Assembly: GCF_003790525.1 (NCBI RefSeq)
Contig: NZ_CP033635.1
Origin: Escherichia coli
GTDB taxonomy: Bacteria > Pseudomonadota > Gammaproteobacteria > Enterobacterales > Enterobacteriaceae
Length of the DNA stretch: 64,000 nucleotides
Reading direction: 5' to 3' (one strand)
Shown: in pieces, positions 6,011 through 33,574 of the stretch
How the letters are laid out: the number at the start of each line of letters is the position of its first letter
Numbering within the stretch: position 1 is the first letter of the stretch
Translations under genes and position numbers: made by a program
Notes under the pieces: generated by a model
Databases searched by the model: none
What the model was told of the DNA's origin: nothing
What the model saw: only the letters and a program-made list of their open reading frames with translations

Positions 6011-7987
6011 ATGTCTGACGACATGTCTATGGGTTTGCCTTCGTCAGCGGGCGAACACGGTGTACTACGCTCCATGCAGGAGGTTGCAATGAGCTCCCAG
6101 GAAGCCAGCAAGATGCTGCGTACTTACAATATTGCCTGGTGGGGCAATAACTACTATGACGTTAACGAGCTGGGCCACATTAGCGTGTGCCCGGACCCGG
6201 ACGTCCCGGAAGCTCGCGTCGATCTCGCGCAGTTAGTGAAAACTCGCGAAGCACAGGGTCAGCGTCTGCCTGCACTGTTCTGTTTCCCACAGATCCTGCA
6301 GCACCGTTTGCGTTCCATTAACGCCGCGTTCAAACGTGCGCGGGAATCCTACGGCTATAACGGCGATTACTTCCTTGTTTATCCGATCAAAGTTAACCAG
6401 CACCGTCGCGTGATTGAGTCCCTGATTCATTCGGGCGAACCGCTGGGCCTGGAAGCCGGTTCCAAAGCGGAGTTGATGGCGGTGTTGGCACATGCTGGCA
6501 TGACCCGTAGCGTCATCGTCTGCAACGGTTATAAGGACCGCGAATATATCCGCCTGGCATTAATTGGCGAGAAGATGGGCCACAAGGTCTATCTGGTCAT
6601 TGAGAAGATGTCAGAAATTGCCATTGTGCTGGATGAAGCAGAACGTCTGAATGTCGTTCCTCGTCTGGGCGTGCGTGCACGTCTGGCTTCGCAGGGCTCG
6701 GGTAAATGGCAGTCCTCCGGCGGGGAAAAATCGAAGTTCGGCCTGGCGGCGACTCAGGTACTGCAACTGGTTGAAACGCTGCGTGAAGCCGGGCGTCTCG
6801 ACAGCCTGCAACTGCTGCACTTCCACCTCGGTTCGCAGATGGCGAATATTCGCGATATCGCGACAGGCGTTCGTGAATCCGCGCGTTTCTATGTGGAACT
6901 GCACAAGCTGGGCGTCAATATTCAGTGCTTCGACGTCGGCGGCGGTCTGGGCGTGGACTATGAAGGCACCCGTTCGCAGTCCGACTGTTCGGTGAACTAC
7001 GGCCTCAATGAATACGCCAACAACATCATCTGGGCGATTGGTGATGCGTGTGAAGAAAATGGTCTGCCACATCCGACAGTAATCACCGAGTCGGGTCGTG
7101 CGGTGACTGCGCATCACACCGTGCTGGTGTCAAATATCATCGGCGTGGAACGTAACGAATACACGGTGCCGACTGCGCCTGCAGAAGACGCACCGCGCGC
7201 ATTGCAAAGCATGTGGGAAACCTGGCAGGAGATGCACGAACCGGGAACTCGCCGTTCTCTGCGTGAATGGTTACACGACAGCCAGATGGATCTGCACGAT
7301 ATTCATATCGGCTACTCTTCCGGCACCTTTAGCCTGCAAGAACGCGCATGGGCTGAGCAGCTTTATTTGAGCATGTGCCATGAAGTGCAAAAGCAGCTGG
7401 ATCCGCAAAACCGTGCTCATCGTCCGATTATCGACGAGCTGCAGGAACGTATGGCGGACAAAATGTACGTCAACTTCTCGCTGTTCCAGTCGATGCCGGA
7501 TGCGTGGGGGATCGACCAGTTGTTCCCGGTTCTGCCGCTGGAAGGGTTGGATCAAGTGCCGGAACGCCGCGCTGTGCTGCTGGATATTACCTGTGACTCT
7601 GACGGTGCTATTGATCACTATATTGATGGTGATGGTATTGCCACGACAATGCCAATGCCGGAGTACGATCCAGAGAATCCGCCGATGCTCGGTTTCTTCA
7701 TGGTCGGCGCATATCAGGAGATCCTCGGCAACATGCACAACCTGTTCGGTGATACCGAAGCGGTTGACGTGTTCGTCTTCCCTGACGGCAGCGTAGAAGT
7801 AGAACTGTCTGACGAAGGCGATACCGTGGCGGATATGCTGCAATATGTACAGCTCGATCCGAAAACGTTGTTAACCCAGTTCCGTGATCAAGTGAAGAAA
7901 ACCGATCTTGATGCTGAACTGCAACAACAGTTCCTTGAAGAGTTCGAGGCAGGTTTGTACGGTTATACCTATCTTGAAGATGAATAA
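6011..7987 (+). CDS. speA: biosynthetic arginine decarboxylase
   Basis: ORF 5999..7987; [45 protein letters not shown] matches SpeA; ATG at 6011. Confidence 0.95.
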
Positions 7988-14746: not shown

Positions 14747-14767
14747 TCGGTAAGATACTTTGTGAGA

Positions 14768-14793
14768 AGGGCCGCGAAAGCGGCCCTTTTTTT
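14768..14793. terminator. tktA intrinsic terminator (bidirectional, abuts SPFH gene stop)
   Basis: gggccgc-gaaa-gcggccc followed by ttttttt. Confidence 0.7.
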
Positions 14794-15700
14794 ACTTAGT
14801 AGAGATAAACGGAACTGTGCTGCCGGGGATCATGGTATCGGGCAGTTTACCGTCCCAACGTTCGGCAGTGGTGAGGGCTACAAGTCCGGGATTATCCCGC
14901 AGAGCTTCACCGCGCAGGCGGATCGCTTCTGCTTCAGCCGCACTTTTTAAACGAATAGTTTCAGCCTCTGCCGCGCCTCTTACGCGAATAGTTTCCGCTT
15001 CTGCTTTAGCTGCCGCCAGTTTACTGTCTGCTTCTGCCTGGGCCTGAGTTACCGCTATTTGCGCCTGGATTTTCTCTGTTTCCAGATTTTGCTTACGCGT
15101 GGCAATGGCGACTTCTGCTTTCATTCGGTCTTCAATCGACTTTTCATAAGCGTCAGAAAAATCAATATTTTCAATCTGGACCCCGTCAATTACCACTGGC
15201 CCAACAACGGCTTTGCGCATGGCATTTTGCAGATCCTGAACCAGTTTTGTACGATCCTGTACAGCGCTGATGGCGGTATATTGGCCGAAAACGTTCTCCA
15301 GTTGAGTTGGCAACTGACGGACAATCAGACGATCTTTTAATGCTTCAATGGTGTTGTAGGTGGTATAAACCGCGCCTGCTTCTGAAGGTTTAATGTGGAA
15401 GCTGACTGATACTGTCATTTGTGCCGGTTGCTGGTCGCGGCTGTAGGCCTGTAATCCCTGATAGACCACAGCCTGATTACGCGTGGAAATTTTCTCCACG
15501 CTTTCCATAAACGGGATCTTAAAACCCAGACCCGGCTCGGCAACTTTTACGATTTTTCCGTAGCGCAGCAAAATGCCGCGTTCACCTTCATTAACGGTGT
15601 AATACGAGAGAAATGGCAGCACAACCACGGCAAGCACGCCAATGGCGATAGCAAGAGATTTTTGTGGGCGAAATGAGGTTAATGAAACAGGTGCTTTCAT
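14792..15700 (-). CDS. SPFH/band-7 (prohibitin/HflC-like) membrane protein with C-terminal coiled-coil repeats; not recalled in K-12 between tktA and cmtB
   Basis: N-terminal TM helix LAIAIGVLAVVVLPF, SPFH-like core, C-terminal AEAETIR(V/L)RG repeats and ERWDGKLP motif; SD aggaag upstream of ATG 15700. Confidence 0.7.
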   Translation of the reverse strand: MKAPVSLTSFRPQKSLAIAIGVLAVVVLPFLSYYTVNEGERGILLRYGKIVKVAEPGLGFKIPFMESVEKISTRNQAVVYQGLQAYSRDQQPAQMTVSVSFHIKPSEAGAVYTTYNTIEALKDRLIVRQLPTQLENVFGQYTAISAVQDRTKLVQDLQNAMRKAVVGPVVIDGVQIENIDFSDAYEKSIEDRMKAEVAIATRKQNLETEKIQAQIAVTQAQAEADSKLAAAKAEAETIRVRGAAEAETIRLKSAAEAEAIRLRGEALRDNPGLVALTTAERWDGKLPDTMIPGSTVPFISTK

Positions 15701-16077
15701 GACAATCTTCCTTGAGTAAAGTGTGGGAATATGTCACATGAGATGAGGAGAAAACAGCCGACAGGTGAGAATTCAGAATCTATAAAGGGGTATAGCGAAA
15801 AAACATTGCTTTAAAAAAGTATGTTTTCGGACATTCAATAAATAAATGGCGATATGCATCACAAATACAACAATAATCAAAATGTTGATTTTGTGATAAA
15901 CGTAACAAATACAAAGTTGACTTTAAAAATATCAACTTCATGTTGTTATTATTTAAGGTTTTATTATTTTTGTTCATGGGGTTTTTCTTCTCGCGTACCC
16001 AATTGCTTTCATTAAACCGCACGAGTATTTTATTTTTACCGCCGGACGGTACCCTAAAAATAAAATAAGGATAATTT

Positions 16078-16521
16078 ATGCGGCTTAGTGATTATTTTCC
16101 AGAATCATCAATCTCAGTTATACATTCAGCAAAAGATTGGCAGGAAGCTATCGATTTCTCGATGGTATCATTGCTGGATAAAAACTATATCAGCGAGAAT
16201 TACATTCAGGCAATTAAAGATTCCACCATTAACAATGGCCCTTATTATATTCTCGCACCAGGCGTGGCAATGCCTCATGCGCGACCGGAATGTGGGGCGC
16301 TTAATACCGGGATGTCTTTGACATTACTTGAACAAGGTGTTTATTTTCCGGGGAATGACGAACCTATTAAATTACTCATCGGACTCTCTGCTGCCGATGC
16401 CGATTCGCACATTGGCGCTATTCAGGCGTTAAGTGAATTACTGTGCGAAGAAGAAATACTCGAACAACTCTTAACAGCATCATCAGAAAAACAATTAGCG
16501 GACATTATCAGCCGCGGATAA
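16078..16521 (+). CDS. cmtB: PTS mannitol-type EIIA component (cryptic)
   Basis: 147-aa ORF with PTS EIIA-2 fold signature (GVAMPHA); followed by cmtA. Confidence 0.85.
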   Translation: MRLSDYFPESSISVIHSAKDWQEAIDFSMVSLLDKNYISENYIQAIKDSTINNGPYYILAPGVAMPHARPECGALNTGMSLTLLEQGVYFPGNDEPIKLLIGLSAADADSHIGAIQALSELLCEEEILEQLLTASSEKQLADIISRG

Positions 16522-16548
16522 TTACTCTCTCCTCTACAGGATAATATT

Positions 16549-17937
16549 ATGGAAAACAAGTCTGCTCGTGCAAAGGTCCAGGCTTTTGGGGGCTTTTTGA
16601 CTGCAATGGTCATCCCCAATATTGGTGCTTTTATTGCCTGGGGTTTTATTACTGCATTATTTATTCCTACTGGTTGGCTGCCTAACGAACATTTCGCCAA
16701 AATTGTCGGCCCGATGATTACCTATTTATTGCCCGTGATGATTGGTTCTACCGGTGGCCATTTAGTCGGCGGTAAACGCGGCGCGGTCATGGGCGGAATA
16801 GGTACTATTGGTGTGATCGTCGGCGCAGAGATCCCGATGTTCCTTGGCTCAATGATTATGGGGCCGCTCGGTGGGCTGGTCATAAAATATGTCGATAAGG
16901 CACTGGAAAAACGCATACCTGCTGGTTTTGAGATGGTTATCAATAACTTCTCATTAGGTATCGCGGGGATGCTCCTTTGTCTGCTGGGTTTTGAAGTGAT
17001 CGGCCCGGCGGTGTTAATTGCCAATACTTTCGTCAAAGAGTGTATTGAGGCGCTGGTACATGCGGGTTATCTGCCTCTGCTGTCAGTCATCAATGAACCG
17101 GCGAAAGTGCTTTTCCTTAATAATGCGATCGATCAGGGCGTCTATTATCCGCTGGGAATGCAACAGGCTTCGGTTAACGGTAAATCCATCTTCTTTATGG
17201 TGGCCTCTAACCCAGGTCCGGGCCTGGGGCTGCTGCTGGCGTTTACCTTGTTTGGTAAAGGGATGAGTAAACGTTCTGCGCCCGGGGCGATGATTATTCA
17301 CTTCCTCGGTGGGATCCACGAACTGTATTTCCCGTATGTGCTGATGAAGCCGCTGACCATTATTGCCATGATTGCAGGCGGTATGTCTGGCACCTGGATA
17401 TTTAACTTACTGGACGGTGGTCTGGTGGCTGGCCCAAGTCCGGGGTCTATCTTTGCGTACCTGGCACTGACGCCGAAAGGCTCGTTCCTGGCGACAATTG
17501 CTGGTGTTACGGTAGGTACCCTGGTGTCCTTTGCTATCACTTCGCTGATACTGAAGATGGAAAAAACGGTGGAAACGGAGAGCGAAGATGAGTTTGCTCA
17601 GTCAGCCAATGCGGTTAAGGCGATGAAACAAGAGGGTGCATTCTCGCTAAGCAGAGTTAAGCGTATCGCCTTTGTTTGCGATGCGGGGATGGGCTCCAGT
17701 GCGATGGGCGCGACGACCTTCCGTAAACGCCTGGAAAAAGCGGGGCTGCCAATTGAAGTAAAACATTACGCGATAGAAAACGTGCCTGCGGATGCGGATA
17801 TCGTCGTTACTCATGCCAGTCTGGAAGGGCGCGTGAAACGTGTGACGGATAAACCGCTGATATTGATTAATAACTATATTGGCGATCCAAAACTCGACAC
17901 TTTATTTAATCAATTAACCGCCGAACATAAACACTGA
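16549..17937 (+). CDS. cmtA: PTS mannitol-type EIICB component (cryptic)
   Basis: 462-aa polytopic membrane protein with C-terminal EIIB domain (CDAGMGSSAMG). Confidence 0.85.
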   Translation: MENKSARAKVQAFGGFLTAMVIPNIGAFIAWGFITALFIPTGWLPNEHFAKIVGPMITYLLPVMIGSTGGHLVGGKRGAVMGGIGTIGVIVGAEIPMFLGSMIMGPLGGLVIKYVDKALEKRIPAGFEMVINNFSLGIAGMLLCLLGFEVIGPAVLIANTFVKECIEALVHAGYLPLLSVINEPAKVLFLNNAIDQGVYYPLGMQQASVNGKSIFFMVASNPGPGLGLLLAFTLFGKGMSKRSAPGAMIIHFLGGIHELYFPYVLMKPLTIIAMIAGGMSGTWIFNLLDGGLVAGPSPGSIFAYLALTPKGSFLATIAGVTVGTLVSFAITSLILKMEKTVETESEDEFAQSANAVKAMKQEGAFSLSRVKRIAFVCDAGMGSSAMGATTFRKRLEKAGLPIEVKHYAIENVPADADIVVTHASLEGRVKRVTDKPLILINNYIGDPKLDTLFNQLTAEHKH

Positions 17938-19229: not shown

Positions 19230-20191
19230 TGTCCCTGGCGTGGCCATTATTTCGCGTTACGGAACAGGCAGCGTTGGCTGCCTGGCCGCAAATCGGATGT
19301 GGCGACAAAAATAAAATTGATGGCCTGGCGGTCACCGCGATGCGCCAGGCATTAAACGACGTCGCTTTTCGTGGGCGAGTGGTTATCGGCGAGGGAGAGA
19401 TTGACCATGCGCCGATGCTGTGGATTGGCGAAGAGGTGGGCAAAGGCGATGGGCCAGAAGTCGATATCGCGGTTGATCCGATTGAAGGCACCAGGATGGT
19501 GGCGATGGGGCAGAGCAATGCGCTGGCAGTCATGGCCTTCGCCCCACGAGGCAGCCTGCTACACGCTCCCGATATGTATATGAAAAAACTGGTTGTTAAT
19601 CGGCTGGCGGCGGGCGCGATTGATCTGTCTTTGCCACTGGTGGACAACCTGCGCAACGTGGCGAAAGCGTTAGGCAAACCGCTGGACAAGCTGCGCATGG
19701 TTACGCTGGATAAACCGCGCCTGAGTGCCGCGATTGAAGAAGCAACACAGCTGGGCGTGAAGGTTTTCGCTCTGCCGGATGGCGATGTCGCCGCCAGCGT
19801 GCTGACCTGCTGGCAGGATAATCCTTACGATGTGATGTACACCATCGGCGGTGCGCCAGAAGGCGTGATTTCTGCCTGTGCCGTTAAAGCATTAGGCGGG
19901 GATATGCAGGCCGAGCTGATTGACTTTTGTCAGGCTAAAGGGGATTACACGGAAAATCGGCAGATTGCAGAGCAGGAGCGCAAGCGTTGCAAGGCAATGG
20001 GCGTTGACGTTAACCGTGTGTACTCGCTCGATGAACTGGTGAGGGGGAACGATATCCTCTTTAGCGCTACGGGCGTGACGGGTGGCGAGTTGGTGAACGG
20101 TATCCAACAGACGGCGAATGGGGTGCGGACGCAGACATTACTGATCGGCGGCGCGGACCAAACGTGTAATATAATAGACTCCCTGCATTGA
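19226..20191 (+). CDS. yggF: class II fructose-1,6-bisphosphatase (GlpX-like)
   Basis: 321-aa ORF with GlpX-like motifs; start overlaps yggP stop. Confidence 0.85.
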   Translation: MMSLAWPLFRVTEQAALAAWPQIGCGDKNKIDGLAVTAMRQALNDVAFRGRVVIGEGEIDHAPMLWIGEEVGKGDGPEVDIAVDPIEGTRMVAMGQSNALAVMAFAPRGSLLHAPDMYMKKLVVNRLAAGAIDLSLPLVDNLRNVAKALGKPLDKLRMVTLDKPRLSAAIEEATQLGVKVFALPDGDVAASVLTCWQDNPYDVMYTIGGAPEGVISACAVKALGGDMQAELIDFCQAKGDYTENRQIAEQERKRCKAMGVDVNRVYSLDELVRGNDILFSATGVTGGELVNGIQQTANGVRTQTLLIGGADQTCNIIDSLH

Positions 20192-20212
20192 TGGTGATCT
20201 ATCGGAAGACGA

Positions 20213-20722
20213 ATGGCGACGCTGACAGAAGATGATGTGCTTGAGCAACTGGATGCACAGGACAATTTATTTTCATTTATGAAAACTGCGCATTCTATTT
20301 TGCTCCAGGGGATACGCCAGTTTCTGCCGTCGCTGTTTGTCGATAACGATGAAGAGATCGTCGAATATGCAGTGAAGCCGTTACTCGCCCAAAGCGGCCC
20401 GCTTGACGATATTGATGTTGCGCTGCGTTTGATTTATGCGCTGGGGAAAATGGATAAATGGCTGTACGCCGATATCACGCATTTTTCCCAGTTCTGGCAT
20501 TACCTGAACGAACAGGATGAAATGCCCGGATTTGCCGATGACATGACCTGGGATTTTATCAGCAACGTCAATAGTATAACCCGCAATGCGACGCTCTATG
20601 ACGCATTGAAAGCGATGAAGTTCGCCGATTTCGCCGTCTGGTCAGAGGCGCGTTTTAGCGGGATGGTCAAAACGGCGCTGACGCTGGCAGTAACGACCAC
20701 CTTAAAGGAATTAACGCCGTGA
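20213..20722 (+). CDS. yggD: MtlR-like regulator/fumarase E family protein
   Basis: 169-aa ORF MATLTEDDVLEQLDAQDNLFSFMKTAHSILLQG... matches YggD. Confidence 0.8.
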   Translation: MATLTEDDVLEQLDAQDNLFSFMKTAHSILLQGIRQFLPSLFVDNDEEIVEYAVKPLLAQSGPLDDIDVALRLIYALGKMDKWLYADITHFSQFWHYLNEQDEMPGFADDMTWDFISNVNSITRNATLYDALKAMKFADFAVWSEARFSGMVKTALTLAVTTTLKELTP

Positions 20723-21432
20723 AAATTGAATTAACGGTGAATGGGCTGAAGATACAGGCACAGTACCAGAACGAAGAGATTGAAAATGTACATAAACCGT
20801 TGCTGCACATGTTGGCGGCCTTACAGACGGTAAATCCGCAGCGGCGTACGGTGGTTTTTCTTTGCGCTCCGCCGGGGACGGGTAAATCTACCCTAACCAC
20901 CTTCTGGGAATATATCGCGCAACAAGACCCGGAACTGCCCGCTATTCAGACGCTACCGATGGATGGTTTTCATCATTACAATAGCTGGCTGGATGCGCAT
21001 CAATTGCGCCCCTTCAAAGGCGCACCAGAGACATTTGACGTTGCGAAACTGGCGGAAAATCTGCGCCAGGTCGTGGAAGGGGATTGTACGTGGCCGCAGT
21101 ACGATCGACAAAAGCATGATCCTGTTGAAGATGCGTTGCACGTTACCGCACCACTCGTCATCGTCGAAGGAAACTGGTTGTTGCTGGACGACGAGAAGTG
21201 GCGCCAGCTTGCGCAATTTTGTGATTTCTCGATCTTTATCAAAGCTCCCGCATCTGCGTTGCGGGAGCGTCTGGTGGGGCGCAAGCTGGCGGGAGGGTTA
21301 TCGCTGGCAGACGCAGAAGCCTTTTATGACCGTACCGACGGGCCGAATGTTCGCCGGGTGCTGGAAGAGAGTCTGCCTGCAAATTTGACCTTAATGATGA
21401 CCGCTACGGGTGAATATCGTCTGATGGATTAA
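20719..21432 (+). CDS. yggC: P-loop kinase (uridine kinase/PRK-like)
   Basis: 237-aa ORF, GTG start overlapping yggD stop; Walker A APPGTGKST. Confidence 0.8.
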   Translation: MKIELTVNGLKIQAQYQNEEIENVHKPLLHMLAALQTVNPQRRTVVFLCAPPGTGKSTLTTFWEYIAQQDPELPAIQTLPMDGFHHYNSWLDAHQLRPFKGAPETFDVAKLAENLRQVVEGDCTWPQYDRQKHDPVEDALHVTAPLVIVEGNWLLLDDEKWRQLAQFCDFSIFIKAPASALRERLVGRKLAGGLSLADAEAFYDRTDGPNVRRVLEESLPANLTLMMTATGEYRLMD

Positions 21433-22081
21433 CGTTCCTGATTACACCATCTTCCAGTCGCACCACACGAGAGAAATGACGCCGGGTAAATGCGGCGTCA
21501 TGACTGATTGCTACGACGCTCGTGCCTCGCTGGCGGCACTTTTCCAGCCAACTTTCAAACACGCTCATCCAATTTTCGTCAAAATCCCGACTCGGCTCGT
21601 CCAGCAGCAATAGCGGCGGAGAGAGTGCTTCCAGGCAGGCGACGGCGACCATCCGTCGCTGCGCACTATGCAGATCCAGCGGATGCGCGCTGGCAGTGTC
21701 TGCTAACTGACAGCATTGCAGGGCAGCATTGGTACGTTGAGTGATTTCATCCGCCGGGCATTTTTGCAGTTTCAAACCAAATGCGATCTCGTCAGCGACG
21801 GTGCTGTGAAAAAGCTGGTTTTCCGCTTCCTGAAACAGTACGCCAATCTTTGCCGCGCGCTGGCGGTTTTTCAGGTTTTTCATCGCCTGTTGTTGCAGCA
21901 TAACCGTACCGGCTGTGGGCGTAAGAAGACCTGCCATTACTCGTAACAGCGTCGATTTTCCCGCGCCATTGTCGCCGGTCAGCGCCAACCATTCACCTTG
22001 TTTGAGTTGCAGAGAAATGTCGCAAAGACAATCCGTTGCCGCGTCAGGCCAGCGATAAGTTATCTGATTTAACGTTAACAT
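21404..22081 (-). CDS. ABC-type ATPase, ECF-transporter energizing subunit with degenerate signature motif (EcfA'-like)
   Basis: Walker A GDNGAGKST, Walker B LLLLDEPSRDFD, H-loop ISHD, but signature region reads LHSAQRR instead of LSGGQ; ATG 22081 overlaps upstream ATPase stop (ATGTTAA). Confidence 0.75.
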   Translation of the reverse strand: MLTLNQITYRWPDAATDCLCDISLQLKQGEWLALTGDNGAGKSTLLRVMAGLLTPTAGTVMLQQQAMKNLKNRQRAAKIGVLFQEAENQLFHSTVADEIAFGLKLQKCPADEITQRTNAALQCCQLADTASAHPLDLHSAQRRMVAVACLEALSPPLLLLDEPSRDFDENWMSVFESWLEKCRQRGTSVVAISHDAAFTRRHFSRVVRLEDGVIRNVNPSDDIHP

Positions 22082-22752
22082 AGTGGCTGGAGCGCTCCGT
22101 TTTGCAATTGCCACGCTTGCTGGCAGTAGTTCAGGAAAGGTGTACGATGACGTTCAAAAAGAATAATCAGCGAACCACGTTCAAGCGCCCAGTGTTGTAA
22201 GCGCTGCAACAGCATTTCGCAGGCCTGCGGCGTCAGGCGGCTAAAGGCTTCATCAAGAATTAAGAGCTTTGGCTGCATCGCGATGGCGCAGGCGATGACC
22301 ACACGCTGTGTCTCTCCACCGGAGAGTGTTGCCGGGTGACGATGGCGCAACGGCTGGCACTCGGTCAGAGTCAGGGCGGCATCAATCCGCGCCATAATCT
22401 CCTCTTCAGCAAGACACAGATTTTCTGGCCCAAAGGCAACTTTTTCTTCCACGCTAAAGGTACAGCCGGAGAGCTGCAAATAGGGCGATTGCTGAACGAG
22501 CTGGATGGTGGCGGATTGTTCATTAAGCGGGATATGCCCAATGGGCGTACCGAGAAGCGTCCCCGTGCCGGTTATCTCTCCTGGCAGAAAGTCCGGATAC
22601 CAGCCCGCCATCAGCTGTGCCAGCGTACTTTTGCCACTGCCGTTGTCACCAAAGATGGCGACCATCCCCGGTTTGACATAGTGAAAGTCATAACAGAACG
22701 GAGGATGCGTTGAGTGTGTCGGGCAATAGCGAAACTGTTCTAACGTAACCAT
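22075..22752 (-). CDS. ABC-type ATPase, ECF-transporter energizing subunit (EcfA-like)
   Basis: Walker A GDNGSGKST, canonical signature LSGGETQR, Walker B LLILDEA; start could be 22758 or 22752. Confidence 0.75.
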   Translation of the reverse strand: MVTLEQFRYCPTHSTHPPFCYDFHYVKPGMVAIFGDNGSGKSTLAQLMAGWYPDFLPGEITGTGTLLGTPIGHIPLNEQSATIQLVQQSPYLQLSGCTFSVEEKVAFGPENLCLAEEEIMARIDAALTLTECQPLRHRHPATLSGGETQRVVIACAIAMQPKLLILDEAFSRLTPQACEMLLQRLQHWALERGSLIILFERHRTPFLNYCQQAWQLQNGALQPLC

Positions 22753-23447
22753 ATCCACGCTCCGAATTCAGCCAGCATTAGCAAGATCATGGCGTAACGT
22801 GCTACGCGTTGTAGGGTGCTATCGGCTGGTGCCCATAACGTAGTGCGCCTATTGTTGATTCGAAATGCCCGCATATCCAGCGCCGCACCACGGACAGCCA
22901 GATCGTTAAGCGCATTGTGTGTTAGCGGAATAATTAGCGCGGGCATCGCGCGTAAACGCTGATACCAGCCTTCATCAAGCGGCACGCCGCGGGCGCGCTG
23001 CGCTTCATGAATAATCGCTAATTGCCGTTTTAACTGCTCAACGACCAACAACGGCCCGGCGAACAGATAAGCGACGCCCGGCGGCAGGCGAGAAGCAAAC
23101 AAAGCGCGGATAAAACGTTGCACTGGGACGTACTGCATCCACAACTGCGAGGTTGAAACAATCGCCAGAATCCGCAACCAGAGCGTAATAGCATGCGTCC
23201 ACCGTTCTGGCGAGCGTGGCGTGCCGCTTAGCCATTCTATCAGCCAGCCACCGTGTACCAGCCACAGTCCAGCCCCCAGCGAGAACATCAGCCAGACGAC
23301 ATATTTTGCCCGCCGCCGCGTGGCCTTTAGCGCAATAAGGCAGAAAAAGGTCGCCGCGCTATAGACTGGCAATATTGTCTGTGTGGGCAGGATAAGCGTG
23401 GTGTAGGCCGCCAGCGCCCACAGCGTTAATGAGGTAAACGGATGCAT
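22740..23447 (-). CDS. ECF transporter transmembrane T component (CbiQ/EcfT-like)
   Basis: Polytopic 235-aa protein with Ala-Arg-Gly-type coupling motifs (EAQRARGV; LAVRGAALD); ATG directly follows stop of upstream gene. Confidence 0.65.
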   Translation of the reverse strand: MHPFTSLTLWALAAYTTLILPTQTILPVYSAATFFCLIALKATRRRAKYVVWLMFSLGAGLWLVHGGWLIEWLSGTPRSPERWTHAITLWLRILAIVSTSQLWMQYVPVQRFIRALFASRLPPGVAYLFAGPLLVVEQLKRQLAIIHEAQRARGVPLDEGWYQRLRAMPALIIPLTHNALNDLAVRGAALDMRAFRINNRRTTLWAPADSTLQRVARYAMILLMLAEFGAWIWLR

Positions 23448-24026
23448 TTAGCGCACGGCTGCCATTGCCGGAAAATGGCGCGTGGTGCGAATCGGCAGCT
23501 GACGCAGTAAAAGCCAGACAATCACCGCTGTAAGAATTTTATCGACCAGGTTTGCGCCTATCACCGTAATCGCCACCGACTCCACCAGGTTTTGCCCCAT
23601 AGAGTGCATCCAGGCAACGAACAAATCGGCTCCGCTACCGGTGACACCGCCGAACAGCGCAGTACGCAGCGGTACAGCGACGACCGTTACCGCAAGCGTA
23701 ATAATCACGCCGCTGACAACGACTTTTGGCAGGGTGCGGAACCAACCCGCTCGCGCCAGCCAACCGGCGACCAGGCCGATGACCATCGCCACGGGCGCAA
23801 ATGCGGCGGCGATCGGGTCGGTCAGCAATCCCCAGAGTAAATTGGTCAGTAAGCCGGTCAGCATCCCGATCACCGGACCAAGCAGTACCGCGCTAATAAG
23901 TGTGCCGACGGAGTCGAGAAATATAGGTAATTTGACCATGCTGGCCAGTTGCCCGCCGATCATATTGATGGCGATAGATATAACGATCAACACCAGCGCC
24001 TGACTGGAAAAGTGGCGACGCGCCAT
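23448..24026 (-). CDS. small integral membrane protein, putative ECF substrate-capture S component
   Basis: About 190 aa, 5-6 predicted TM helices, sits first in transporter gene order; start chosen at MARRHFSSQ (ORF extends to 24125). Confidence 0.55.
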   Translation of the reverse strand: MARRHFSSQALVLIVISIAINMIGGQLASMVKLPIFLDSVGTLISAVLLGPVIGMLTGLLTNLLWGLLTDPIAAAFAPVAMVIGLVAGWLARAGWFRTLPKVVVSGVIITLAVTVVAVPLRTALFGGVTGSGADLFVAWMHSMGQNLVESVAITVIGANLVDKILTAVIVWLLLRQLPIRTTRHFPAMAAVR

Positions 24027-24048
24027 AAGAAAACCTCTCTGAAAATAG

Positions 24049-24480
24049 TTAGTTAACGGGGGAAATATGCAACTCGTCGTAACCAGAAAGCGCGCAAGGC
24101 TGGCGGCTAAACGCCAGTTCCTCAAGGCAGCCGATCACCAGTTCAAGCGTGGTCCGCACGGTACAGCCGGGCATCATATGACCGCCAAGCATCGTGCCGT
24201 GTGGATCGGAAACGCAGAGATGAAGATGTTCACCACTCTGTTCCAGCGTGCCGTTCAATGCGATGACTTCGAACTTACCGCTTAGTAGGGCAGTGTTTTC
24301 TTGCCCGGCATAGCGTAAGGCGACGTCAGTCAGACTGCCGGTACAACCTGCAATCCACGCGGCGTGAAGTTGTTGTTGCTGCGCGAAGGCGCGTAATTGG
24401 GAGAGAACTTCCTGCCCGGGGAGCAGGCGCAGCGCGTAAAAACGTGCGGAGGAAGAATATGGGTAGGGCAATGTCATCAT
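24049..24480 (-). CDS. DUF296/PPC-domain-like protein (143 aa) of unknown function, first gene of the cluster
   Basis: 143-aa ORF; family assignment from recollection of PPC-domain proteins, not verified. Confidence 0.5.
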   Translation of the reverse strand: MMTLPYPYSSSARFYALRLLPGQEVLSQLRAFAQQQQLHAAWIAGCTGSLTDVALRYAGQENTALLSGKFEVIALNGTLEQSGEHLHLCVSDPHGTMLGGHMMPGCTVRTTLELVIGCLEELAFSRQPCALSGYDELHISPVN

Positions 24481-24608
24481 TGGAGTACTCCGAAACTCGG
24501 ACGTATTGCGGATAATATCGACGCTGCATCAGTCATATTCTGATATAAGTCAGGGTTTGTGACGGCACAACGAAAAGATTTTGCTACGCTTATTCGTGAT
24601 TCTGCAAA

Positions 24609-24624
24609 GTGGAATAAATTCCAC
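24609..24624. promoter_or_regulatory. inverted repeat GTGGAA-N4-TTCCAC in divergent intergenic region, with a further copy of the motif at 24690..24699
   Basis: gtggaataaattccac at 24609..24624; ttttattccac at 24689..24699 is the same motif inverted; lies between the DUF296/ECF cluster and epd. Confidence 0.3.
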
Positions 24625-24851
24625 AGGGGCGGGGCTGAAAACGTGACGTAAGTCAGATAATTGTCTTCTTTGACTGGACAATCATTCCTTTTATTCCACG
24701 TTTCGCTTATCCTAGCTGAAGCGTTTCAGTCGATTAAATGTTCGACAATTAACCAATCAGTCGCAGTTTGCGACAGGTAAGGTTTCCCCGGACGATTTGC
24801 TGGATTACTCTGTCTGGCAAATTTGCTCAGGGAAAACCTTGCAGGAGATCT

Positions 24852-25871
24852 ATGACCGTACGCGTAGCGATAAATGGCTTCGGTCGCATCGGGCGTAATG
24901 TGGTTCGTGCTTTGTATGAATCCGGACGCCGGGCGGAAATTACCGTGGTGGCAATCAACGAACTGGCGGATGCTGCGGGCATGGCGCATTTGTTGAAATA
25001 TGACACCAGCCATGGCCGTTTTGCATGGGAAGTACGACAGGAACGCGATCAACTTTTTGTTGGTGATGACGCCATCCGCGTATTGCATGAACGTTCACTG
25101 CAATCGCTCCCCTGGCGTGAACTTGGCGTTGATGTAGTCCTCGACTGCACCGGCGTATATGGCTCCCGTGAGCATGGCGAAGCGCATATTGCCGCCGGGG
25201 CCAAAAAAGTGCTCTTTTCACATCCTGGCAGTAACGATCTCGACGCGACCGTTGTTTACGGCGTCAATCAGGATCAACTTCGTGCGGAACACCGCATCGT
25301 TTCTAACGCTTCCTGTACCACGAATTGCATAATTCCCGTCATCAAATTGTTAGATGATGCGTACGGTATTGAGTCCGGCACTGTGACCACAATTCACTCC
25401 GCCATGCACGATCAACAGGTTATTGATGCATACCATCCTGACCTGCGTCGCACTCGGGCAGCCAGCCAGTCGATCATTCCGGTCGATACTAAACTGGCCG
25501 CCGGTATCACACGATTTTTTCCGCAATTTAACGATCGCTTTGAAGCGATTGCGGTACGTGTGCCAACCATAAATGTGACGGCAATCGATTTAAGCGTGAC
25601 GGTGAAGAAACCTGTAAAAGCCAATGAAGTCAACCTGTTGCTGCAAAAAGCAGCACAAGGTGCATTTCATGGTATAGTTGACTATACGGAATTGCCGTTG
25701 GTCTCTGTAGATTTTAACCACGATCCGCACAGTGCCATTGTCGATGGCACCCAAACCCGGGTCAGTGGCGCACACCTGATCAAAACGTTGGTCTGGTGCG
25801 ATAACGAATGGGGCTTTGCTAACCGAATGCTCGACACGACGTTAGCTATGGCTACTGTTGCTTTCAGGTAA
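24852..25871 (+). CDS. epd: D-erythrose-4-phosphate dehydrogenase
   Basis: ORF 24768..25871; [37 protein letters not shown] matches Epd (GapB). Confidence 0.95.
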
Positions 25872-31202: not shown

Positions 31203-32099
31203 ATGGACATTTTTATTTCGAAAAAGATGCGCAATTTCATTTTATTAGCGCAAACCAATAATATTGCCCGGGCGGCAGAAAAAATCCATATGACGGCTTC
31301 GCCATTTGGTAAAAGCATTGCCGCGCTGGAAGAACAAATTGGCTATACGCTATTTACCCGCAAAGATAATAATATCAGCCTCAATAAAGCCGGACAGGAA
31401 CTGTATCAAAAACTGTTCCCGGTTTATCAACGACTTTCTGCGATTGATAATGAAATCCATAACTCAGGGCGTCGTTCACGAGAAATTGTGATTGGCATAG
31501 ATAATACTTATCCGACAATTATTTTCGATCAGTTGATTAGTCTCGGAGATAAGTATGAAGGCGTGACCGCCCAGCCAGTTGAGTTCAGCGAAAACGGCGT
31601 TATCGATAATCTTTTTGACCGTCAGTTAGATTTTATAATCTCCCCACAGCATGTGTCTGCACGAGTTCAGGAACTGGAAAACCTGACTATCAGTGAACTA
31701 CCGCCGCTGCGATTGGGCTTTCTCGTTTCTCGTCGTTATGAAGAGCGACAAGAGCAAGAGCTGCTTCAGGAGCTACCCTGGCTACAAATGCGCTTTCAGA
31801 ACCGGGCTAACTTCGAAGCAATGATTGATGCGAATATGCGTCCTTGTGGGATCAATCCCACCATTATTTATCGTCCCTACAGTTTTATGGCCAAAATCAG
31901 CGCCGTGGAGCGCGGACATTTTCTGACGGTGATCCCGCATTTTGCCTGGCGACTGGTGAATCCGGCAACGCTGAAATATTTTGATGCGCCGCACAGGCCG
32001 ATGTATATGCAGGAATATCTTTATTCAATCAGAAATCATCGTTATACCGCCACGATGCTTCAGCATATTGCTGAAGATCGTGACGGGACGAGTCATTAA
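31203..32099 (+). CDS. ygfI: LysR-family transcriptional regulator
   Basis: 298-aa ORF with N-terminal HTH; stop shares 4 nt with convergent scpC. Confidence 0.8.
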   Translation: MDIFISKKMRNFILLAQTNNIARAAEKIHMTASPFGKSIAALEEQIGYTLFTRKDNNISLNKAGQELYQKLFPVYQRLSAIDNEIHNSGRRSREIVIGIDNTYPTIIFDQLISLGDKYEGVTAQPVEFSENGVIDNLFDRQLDFIISPQHVSARVQELENLTISELPPLRLGFLVSRRYEERQEQELLQELPWLQMRFQNRANFEAMIDANMRPCGINPTIIYRPYSFMAKISAVERGHFLTVIPHFAWRLVNPATLKYFDAPHRPMYMQEYLYSIRNHRYTATMLQHIAEDRDGTSH

Positions 32100-33574
32100 C
32101 CCAGCATCGAGCCGGTTGCAATTAAATTACGGTGTAAATCAAAGACGTGGCTAAGATCGTGGTGAATATGTCCGCCGGGCGCATTTTCCAGATAGCGATG
32201 CAGATAATCCCGATACATAGGATGTGCACAATTATCAATGATGGTGCGGGCGCGTTGAAGCGGGGAAAGACCACGCAGATCGGCGATCCCTTGTTCGGTG
32301 ATGATCACTTTGACGCTGTGTTCGCTGTGATCAACATGGCTGCACATTGGCACGACGGTTGAGATCTTGCCTTCTTTAGCAATCGACGGGGCCATAAAGA
32401 TCGACAGATACGCGTTGCGTTCAAAATCACCGCTGCCACCGATGCCGTTCATCAGATCGACCCCGGCTACGTGCGTTGAGTTGGCATGCCCGTAAATATC
32501 AAACTCCAGGCCGACGTTCAGAGCGATGACGCCCAGACGACGGATGATTTCCGGGTTATTGGAAATTTCCTGCGGACGCAACACAATGCGGCTGGCAAAG
32601 TAATCCATATTGTCGTAAATCTTGCGCAGGGAATCGGCCGAGATAGTCAGGCTGGAGGCGCTGGCCCCGCTGATTTTGCCCGTTTCCAGTAAATGCACCA
32701 CCGATTCCTGTAGCACTTCCGAATACATCATGAACGGAGGAATTTCCGGGTTTTCCCCTAGTCGCGCCATGACTGCATTATTGATATTGCCCACGCCACT
32801 TTGCAGCGGCAGAAATTCCGGCGGAATACGCCCATGCGCCATTTCCTGCAACAAGAACGTGACCACGTTATCGGCAATCTGCTGGCACATGGGATTTTGC
32901 TTATCCAGCATATTACCGGCGTCAGGCAAGTTGGTTTCCACGACGGCGACAATCTTTTTCGGATCGATTTGCACATAGCGGGTACCGACGCGATCCATTG
33001 CATGGAAGATCGACACGCTATTGCGCCGCGGTGGCGCGCCAGGAATCACAATATCTGCCAGTTCTGCAACGCGCGGATCGTGATAGTGATTAAGTTCAAT
33101 GATCACTTTCTTCGCTCGCAGCAGCCAGGTCGGCGCATTACCGTTCCCGCTGGTTAACCAGACTCGACCATCCGGTGCCAGTGCCGATGCTTCAATGACG
33201 GCAACATCAATGTCGCCGAAGAAACCGTAATTGACCATTTGCGCCACTTCGCTCAAATGCAGGTCAACGAAACTCACCGCGCCCTGATTGATCTTTTTAC
33301 GTAAACCGGACGATGTTTGATATGGCGCACGCCAGGAAACAGCATCGGCGTCAGAAAGTACATCGTCAGCGGCGGCGCTGATTGACGCCCCCGTCAGCAG
33401 GCGAATTTGATACGGCTTTTTGGCCTCATGCTGTTCGTTAGCTCTGCGGGCAATCGCGGTGGGTAAGGCTTTCGGCGAACCCGCTGGGGTAAAGCCGCTA
33501 AATGCCACCATGTCGTTATGCTGGATAATTTCTGCCGCTTCATCGGCGGTCATCCTTGTCCACTGAGTTTCCAT
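32096..33574 (-). CDS. scpC: propionyl-CoA:succinate CoA transferase
   Basis: 492-aa ORF METQWTRMTADEAAEIIQHNDMVAFSGFT... matches ScpC (YgfH). Confidence 0.9.
   Translation of the reverse strand: METQWTRMTADEAAEIIQHNDMVAFSGFTPAGSPKALPTAIARRANEQHEAKKPYQIRLLTGASISAAADDVLSDADAVSWRAPYQTSSGLRKKINQGAVSFVDLHLSEVAQMVNYGFFGDIDVAVIEASALAPDGRVWLTSGNGNAPTWLLRAKKVIIELNHYHDPRVAELADIVIPGAPPRRNSVSIFHAMDRVGTRYVQIDPKKIVAVVETNLPDAGNMLDKQNPMCQQIADNVVTFLLQEMAHGRIPPEFLPLQSGVGNINNAVMARLGENPEIPPFMMYSEVLQESVVHLLETGKISGASASSLTISADSLRKIYDNMDYFASRIVLRPQEISNNPEIIRRLGVIALNVGLEFDIYGHANSTHVAGVDLMNGIGGSGDFERNAYLSIFMAPSIAKEGKISTVVPMCSHVDHSEHSVKVIITEQGIADLRGLSPLQRARTIIDNCAHPMYRDYLHRYLENAPGGHIHHDLSHVFDLHRNLIATGSMLG

Follow-up and report, generated by a model that had tools for sequence, protein, structure and literature searches.

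A 29-nt convergent overlap between yggC and an ECF-type ATPase gene in Escherichia coli, probably a passive 3′ extension at an old junction without spacer

We analyzed a 64,000-nt stretch of Escherichia coli DNA (contig NZ_CP033635.1, called the window here; all positions refer to it), in which yggC on the plus strand and the last gene of an ECF transporter operon on the minus strand run into each other. The genes concerned and their overlap are the following.

20719–21432, plus strand: yggC, P-loop sugar/nucleoside-kinase family protein, 237 aa (ORF, RefSeq annotation, NCBIfam)
21404–21432, both strands: convergent overlap of 29 nt, with YggC residues 230–237 and stop (plus) and ATPase residues 218–225 and stop (minus)
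21404–22081, minus strand: A′, distal ECF-type ABC ATPase, 225 aa from the PGAP start (Pfam ABC_tran, NCBIfam ECF_ATPase models)
22075–22752, minus strand: A, proximal ECF ABC ATPase, 225 aa (Pfam/NCBIfam matches, RefSeq)
22740–23447, minus strand: ECF transmembrane T component, CbiQ-like (PF02361, below cut-off; RefSeq)
23448–24026, minus strand: ECF S (substrate-capture) component (Pfam PF12822; NCBIfam NF045596)
24049–24480, minus strand: PPC/PCC (DUF296) domain DNA-binding protein, first gene of the ECF operon, divergent from epd (Pfam PF03479, RefSeq)

The yggC gene is the last of the cassette cmtBA-yggP-glpX(yggF)-fumE(yggD)-yggC. Its product is similar to pantothenate and uridine kinases, and residues 37–225 align with the solved structure 3c8u ('fructokinase', PDB). 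The opposing operon, which diverges from epd, has the order PPC-S-T-A-A′, so that A′ is its last (distal) gene, and this order is kept in all genera examined. As S, T and two ABC ATPases (2 × PF00005) are encoded together, it codes for a group I (dedicated-operon) ECF transporter. The S component matches NF045596 (CD3073 family) with E = 1.3e-39 and 135.6 bits, below the curated cut-off of 180, and both ATPases are short (225 aa), lacking the C-terminal ~50 residues of canonical EcfA profiles (positions ~227–279). Both overlapping ORFs are real coding genes: YggC matches the NCBIfam equivalog NF006742 over its full length (520 bits, aligned 1–237 of 237), A′ has more than 600 homologs, and RefSeq annotates both.

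The ORF list and the sequence place the yggC stop (TAA) at 21430–21432 and the ATPase stop (TAG on the minus strand, read as 'cta' on the plus strand) at 21404–21406. The ORFs, the stops and the RefSeq annotation all agree with the coordinates and the length of 29 nt given in a preliminary description of this DNA. The shared bases hold codons T230–D237, the stop and 2 nt of the A229 codon of yggC and, on the other strand, codons N218–P225, the stop and 2 nt of the V217 codon of the ATPase gene; the translations end in MMTATGEYRLMD (YggC) and RLEDGVIRNVNPSDDIHP (ATPase), each directly followed by the stop. Codon positions 1 face each other across the overlap, and positions 2 face positions 3 and vice versa, which by elimination corresponds to 'phase 1', the most frequent one in convergent overlaps longer than 4 nt (preprint 10.1101/2025.11.07.687268). 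The same overlap stands in the RefSeq/PGAP annotation of O157:H7 OK1, of ws5-3 and of strain CM2, the last of which matches the 1.5 kb queried around the junction with 100% identity. Ten convergent junctions lie in the 64-kb window according to the CM2 annotation, eight with spacers of 39–165 nt and two overlapping. Overlap per se is not rare, and 29 nt exceeds the common 4-nt type. The second overlapping pair, srsR (plus, 31203–32099) and scpC (minus, 32096–33574), is of this common type and shares the 4 nt at 32096–32099.

We compared the downstream neighbor of the distal ATPase gene among enterobacteria in a script-processed scan with one genome per species. The ECF operon adjoins epd in Escherichia, Salmonella, Citrobacter, Klebsiella, Kluyvera, Buttiauxella, Atlantibacter and others, and the piece that varies between genera is the cmt-yggC cassette. 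Where yggC is the convergent neighbor, the two genes overlap at all 21 loci (19 non-duplicate, from eight genera), by 11–92 nt; since these loci are not phylogenetically independent, the count largely reflects one ancestral junction. Where tkt is the neighbor, none of the 21 loci (20 non-duplicate, and likewise not independent) overlaps, and the spacers measure 42–211 nt. The lengths of the yggC-adjacent overlaps are distributed as follows.

11 nt: Phytobacter
26 nt: Silvania confinis
29 nt: an E. coli-like MAG, E. albertii and E. whittamii
32 nt: three Salmonella lineages
41 nt: Superficieibacter
44 nt: seven Citrobacter / Atlantibacter loci
68 nt: C. koseri
92 nt: UBA5654

All of these lengths are congruent to 2 mod 3, so the genes stand in the same relative phase throughout; the length varies among relatives and depends on where the first antisense stop falls. 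In Salmonella Djakarta and on an Atlantibacter hermannii contig, for example, epd and yggC flank the ECF operon, whose overlap with yggC measures 32 and 44 nt, respectively, whereas C. freundii has no cmt-yggC cassette and its ATPase gene (216 aa) faces tkt over a 62-nt spacer. Neither a spacer nor a terminator is present at the yggC–ATPase junction in any of the sampled yggC-adjacent lineages.

Two of the scanned entries carry questionable labels. The MAG contig named Citrobacter sp. HRGM_Genome_0066 (L009) encodes an ATPase with 99% protein identity to that of the window and has the same 29-nt overlap; it is probably a mis-binned or mislabeled E. coli. The locus of 'Citrobacter freundii' M-21 (L017) is only ~70–75% identical across the ECF operon to that of a bona fide C. 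freundii (L005), which makes the species label doubtful. Mosaic recombination inside the ATPase gene, as a possible accompaniment of the cassette, was also considered and rejected: when tkt-adjacent relatives are compared with yggC-adjacent ones by sliding identity, the values stay uniform until they drop sharply in the final ~100 nt. The C. freundii L005/M-21 pair is little informative here because the two are not close relatives. An apparent breakpoint after ATPase Leu209 was dropped, as Gly212 and a hydrophobic residue at 214 are conserved in most lineages.

The overlap begins beyond the conserved part of the ATPase. The core of A′ ends at about residue 214 (RLEDGVI), and residues 215–225 form a variable tail; the full-length FtsE model aligns to residues 1–212 and ECF_ATPase_2 to residues 6–217. 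Orthologs found by protein search in E. marmotae, E. ruysiae, Salmonella, Citrobacter, Atlantibacter and Klebsiella are conserved up to RVVRLxxG, beyond which sequence and length diverge. Tkt-adjacent orthologs are mostly 214–224 aa long (two reach 227) and yggC-adjacent ones mostly 225–235 aa (one has 221). On the other strand, the overlapped YggC residues lie near or after the end of the aligned part of 3c8u. Judged from these alignments, the overlap falls in the peripheral tails of both proteins.

We then looked at how transcription could end at the junction. Bidirectional intrinsic terminators are reportedly pervasive between convergent genes in E. coli, and the orthologous ECF operon, in the same tail-to-tail geometry, uses one in C. 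freundii, Klebsiella, Kluyvera and others. In genomes without the cmt-yggC cassette, an ortholog of the tkt hairpin lies directly behind the ECF ATPase gene as a bidirectional terminator; in 17 of 19 tkt-adjacent spacers, it is found 0–20 nt past the ATPase stop in the form AAAAAAA-CGGGCCGC...GCGACCCG-TTTT (A-run, GC-hairpin, T-run). In the window, this hairpin has stayed with tkt:

14767–14793, plus strand: tkt intrinsic terminator hairpin, AAGGGCCGC-GAAA-GCGGCCCTT, followed by a T-run

Unlike junctions with such a terminator, that of yggC and the ATPase gene has no spacer and no hairpin with an A-run and a T-run between the stops. A consensus scan of 20600–24900 gave no intrinsic terminator or promoter near 21404–21432, with total counts no higher than in shuffled sequence, in agreement with the preliminary description, which had reported neither a spacer nor a terminator here. 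The RNA of the junction does not fold better than shuffled sequence on either strand (z-scores −0.06 and +0.62), and an Rfam scan of 20000–25500 returned no match at E ≤ 1. With no intrinsic terminator at the end of either operon, each transcript would have to run into the other gene, and transcriptional interference between the two operons is possible. Past the yggC stop, the plus-strand RNA contains the following feature.

21511–21614, plus strand: C-rich, G-poor tract, antisense to the ATPase gene, with C/G up to 2.8

This ratio exceeds the window-wide 99th percentile of 2.17, although such tracts are expected antisense to most genes; by its composition, the tract is a candidate Rho-utilization region. 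Two further observations concern hairpins in these regions. A perfect 9-bp inverted repeat at 21476–21501 (ATGACGCCG-N8-CGGCGTCAT), within the conserved ATPase codons HDAAFTRRH, forms the only stable hairpin near the junction; it has no T-run on the plus strand and is followed by UUCUCUC on the minus strand, 70 nt before the stop. In Klebsiella oxytoca (L026), K. grimontii (L027) and K. michiganensis (L032), the ATPase–tkt spacers owe their enlarged size of 129–211 nt to GC-rich palindromic (REP-like) elements; these insertions adjoin the bidirectional terminator and occur only where a true intergenic spacer exists.

In a published model, convergent overlaps originate when a gene is extended at random at its 3′ end until the next stop is reached (Kingsford et al. 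2007, summarized in PMC3887535). The yggC/ATPase pair resembles this model, as outlined in PMC3887535, in that two bona fide genes overlap only in non-conserved C-terminal tails, orthologs with another neighbor stop earlier, and the length changes in steps of 3; from the model as outlined there, it shows no essential difference. We consider it quite likely that the overlap is a passive 3′-extension overlap at an old junction with zero spacer. The ancestral enterobacterial state would have been an ECF operon (PPC-S-T-A-A′, divergent from epd) standing tail-to-tail with tkt and sharing the bidirectional hairpin terminator of tkt. With the cmt-yggC cassette between tkt and the ECF operon, the yggC stop would abut the last conserved ATPase residues, RLxxGx[LIV], and the ATPase frame, having no intergenic DNA to end in, would continue through the antisense of yggC to the first chance stop. 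The length of the overlap would then drift within the observed range as stop codons come and go and in-frame indels occur, the junction never having been reopened, and a single segment replacement would account for the E. coli strains that lack the ECF operon. As for the ancient event itself, the taxon distribution suggests either that the cassette was inserted beside the ATPase gene or that it was lost from the tkt-adjacent lineages.

According to the same scheme, each transcript may enter the other gene for 29 nt or more, probably extending much further. The ribosome would leave at the stop codon, so that the untranslated antisense RNA beyond it would be a natural Rho substrate, and transcripts stopped by Rho or by polymerase collision would have complementary 3′ ends. 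The yggC/ATPase pair is an ordinary convergent overlap of a known kind, documented across genera. Its value is that of a clean natural example of how such an overlap originates and persists: the junction can be traced in eight genera, and the arrangement with tkt provides a matched 'control', in which the same ATPase gene has its own stop and a bidirectional terminator, whereas beside yggC it reads into the yggC antisense.

The complete absence of lineages with a spacer or a terminator could also reflect selection for the overlap. In the excludons of Listeria, antisense crosstalk between genes has been demonstrated, with overlapping transcripts and an RNase III-dependent effect. In E. coli, the same two features have been demonstrated for the convergent genes mscL and arfA (PMC10070815), a precedent for functional antisense crosstalk. 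By analogy, selection could have shaped the terminator-less overlap into a regulatory arrangement like that of excludons or mscL/arfA; the complementary 3′ ends would then lead to RNase III cleavage or to polymerase collision and hence to mutually antagonistic expression of the two operons. Like those pairs, yggC and the ATPase gene are convergent, with transcripts that, judged from the sequence, necessarily overlap at their 3′ ends; no intrinsic terminator intervenes between the operons, and the arrangement is kept in every sampled yggC-adjacent lineage of the eight genera, in none of which a spacer has evolved. However, the length of the overlap is not conserved (11–92 nt), neither folding nor the Rfam scan revealed a conserved RNA structure at the junction, and, unlike in the mscL/arfA and excludon cases, the partners are frequently found apart: 2089 E. 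coli genomes of the K-12 type have yggC without the ECF operon, and many Citrobacter (including C. freundii), Klebsiella, Kluyvera and Buttiauxella genomes have the ECF operon without yggC. The conservation of the arrangement is also explained by common descent together with the damage that an insertion into the overlap would do to both genes. We therefore regard a regulatory architecture of this type as unlikely. Its more specific form, in which selection would have kept the zero-spacer junction as an antisense coupling device, cmt-yggC transcription silencing the ECF operon and the reverse, appears slightly less likely still; if true, it would explain the absence of a spacer or terminator in eight genera.

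The preliminary description had also named co-evolved 3′ ends as one of two possibilities, beside transcriptional interference. A true co-evolution would imply that the extended ATPase tail is functional, for example, by contacting the partner ATPase or the T component, and that the YggC C-terminus has adapted to it. The recurrence of the tail motif [SP]D[IT][HR]P in Escherichia, Salmonella and Citrobacter could be taken in this sense. However, this motif is the exact antisense of YggC GEYR: GGT GAA TAT CGT, read on the other strand, gives D I H P, just as the antisense of LEMT gives S S P A, so that SDIHP and SSPA in the ATPase tail correspond, as reverse complements, to GEYR and LEMT. The corresponding YggC motif EMT..G.Y (EMT..GRYH) is retained in K-12-type strains, in which no ATPase gene lies opposite (EMTEEGRYHFTS). 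Furthermore, the tkt-adjacent orthologs lack the tail entirely and end 2–13 residues past the conserved glycine, and the C-terminal domains of canonical EcfA proteins are absent from both ATPases here. A functional tail is thus very improbable. Since the YggC motifs are kept without an overlap and the tkt-adjacent ATPases have no tail, the ATPase tail appears to be a passive read-through of the yggC antisense. In keeping with this, the ATPase stops in the yggC-adjacent lineages are formed by TTA, CTA or TCA in the codon context of yggC; in Escherichia, the TAG stop is the CTA that spans the yggC codons GCT|ACG. Hence, we propose that YggC 'owns' the shared bases and that the eight overlapped ATPase residues may be a dispensable tail outside the ABC fold. 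The two ends have been inherited together, and in this respect the proposal of co-evolution stands, but it is trivial beyond that, as the ATPase tail is dictated by the antisense of a conserved YggC C-terminus.

To place the junction within the species, we compared the window with E. coli genomes that lack the ECF operon. The difference extends beyond the operon itself:

21179–24630: segment dimorphic in E. coli, comprising the ECF-linked yggC 3′ end and the whole ECF operon

In K-12-type genomes, this segment is replaced by a divergent yggC 3′ end and about 65 nt, and their yggC has the same length and the same stop position and is followed by 284 nt and then epd. DNA identity between the window and a K-12-like genome is ~98–99% up to yggC nt 460, 65% at nt 461–600 and 58% at nt 601–714; weaker similarity returns from about 24608, and from 24631, a position just upstream of the epd promoter/Cra-site region, identity is high again (99%). 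At the protein level, the N-terminal 150 aa of YggC are 98.7% identical and the C-terminal 87 aa 67–70%. The comparison of the yggC 3′ end with K-12 that the preliminary description had suggested shows the same stop position and a C-terminal third that differs (~67% protein identity). Among the 5416 E. coli genomes with yggC, 3320 have the ECF junction and 2089 the K-12-type segment (~61% versus 39%). Over the last ~250 nt of yggC (21179–21432 of the window versus 6480–6733 of the K-12-type locus L002), identity is 58–65% between the two classes and 91–100% within a class. The K-12-type class alone is 91–99% diverse internally, so it is old.

The ECF-linked YggC C-terminus is 95% identical to that of E. 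albertii, 92% to that of E. whittamii and 67–79% to those of other genera, and E. albertii and E. whittamii share both the ECF-linked yggC allele and the 29-nt overlap. With 58–70% identity, the K-12-type C-terminus stands apart from all genera compared. A search for a donor with its 81 C-terminal residues gave 10 matches, all fragmentary E. coli-like proteins, and no close relative was found among 19 yggC loci of other genera (58–68% amino-acid identity). Because the ECF-linked allele is shared with E. albertii and E. whittamii and the K-12-type allele is the outlier, the ECF operon appears to be ancestral in Escherichia. The K-12-type strains would then descend from one replacement, in which the yggC 3′ end and the ECF operon gave way to a xenologous yggC 3′ end and ~65 nt.

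The preliminary description had considered the opposite, that the cluster is an insertion; in this reading, the ECF cluster would have been acquired horizontally in some E. coli and have landed directly against a pre-existing yggC. Indeed, no more than 61% of the complete E. coli genomes have the cluster, K-12 and B are without it (PMC3032704), and the GC content of the cluster (54–57%) is slightly higher than that of the flanks (~50%). The E. coli W genome paper describes it as a 'cbiQ-O2 cobalt transport system in the region epd-yggC' that is polymorphic with respect to K-12 and B (PMC3032704); this is the same cluster and the same presence/absence polymorphism as here. The paper is silent on the overlap, on the yggC 3′ allele linked to the cluster and on the conservation across genera, and its 'cobalt' is a similarity-based annotation; the S component here is only a sub-cut-off match to a CD3073-type model. 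Against an insertion, the same operon adjoins epd in many enterobacterial genera, the same 29-nt overlap occurs in E. albertii and E. whittamii with a divergence that scales with the species distance, and the yggC 3′ end of the ECF-less strains is not an 'empty site', being only 58–65% identical in DNA and an outlier among the genera compared. The cluster, which encodes only the transporter and PPC genes, carries no integrase or tRNA and no direct repeats at its boundaries. An insertion against yggC is therefore highly improbable, and the picture of K-12 as ancestral and of the extra genes as inserted has to be corrected for this locus. A 20-nt repeat pair (D1) was considered as an island boundary; its copies are 80% identical and lie in the Walker-B codons of YggC and in the PPC gene, and the match was judged to be due to chance.

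There is next to no chance that the overlap is an artefact of sequencing, of assembly or of gene-end calling: nothing was found in favor of this, and the 161-nt junction is present at ≥95% identity in 3320 independent genomes among the 5426 complete ones of E. coli. Each ORF is a homolog over its full length and has a defined stop; neither contains an earlier stop in frame, so that a shorter ATPase C-terminus using a stop upstream of 21406 is impossible.

In E. coli BS-04 (L076, NZ_CP172819, 3065–3117), the ECF operon has been removed (the equivalent of 21404–24578 of the window) and 51 nt of unrelated filler stand in its place. One end of the deletion is exactly base 1 of the ATPase stop codon, and the other lies ~100 nt upstream of the PPC gene; as a result, yggC is cut short and carries the annotation of a frameshifted pseudogene, a case that illustrates what the overlap can cost. 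An ORF-to-ORF deletion of the ECF operon necessarily truncates yggC, as happened in this strain, and antisense read-through is to be expected when the expression of either operon is studied in ECF+ strains (O157:H7, ExPEC, E. coli W). A 14-nt inverted repeat, 21178–21191 / 21597–21610, is made up of the codons for the two Walker-B motifs, LLLDD in YggC and LLLLDE in the ATPase, which lie on opposite strands; it is a motif coincidence between two convergent P-loop NTPase genes. Elsewhere in the window, a prohibitin-family gene (~14792–15700, minus strand) lies between tkt and cmtB and is absent from a K-12-like genome; the region 15000–17000 has a low GC content (39–44%), which suggests another indel or foreign segment.
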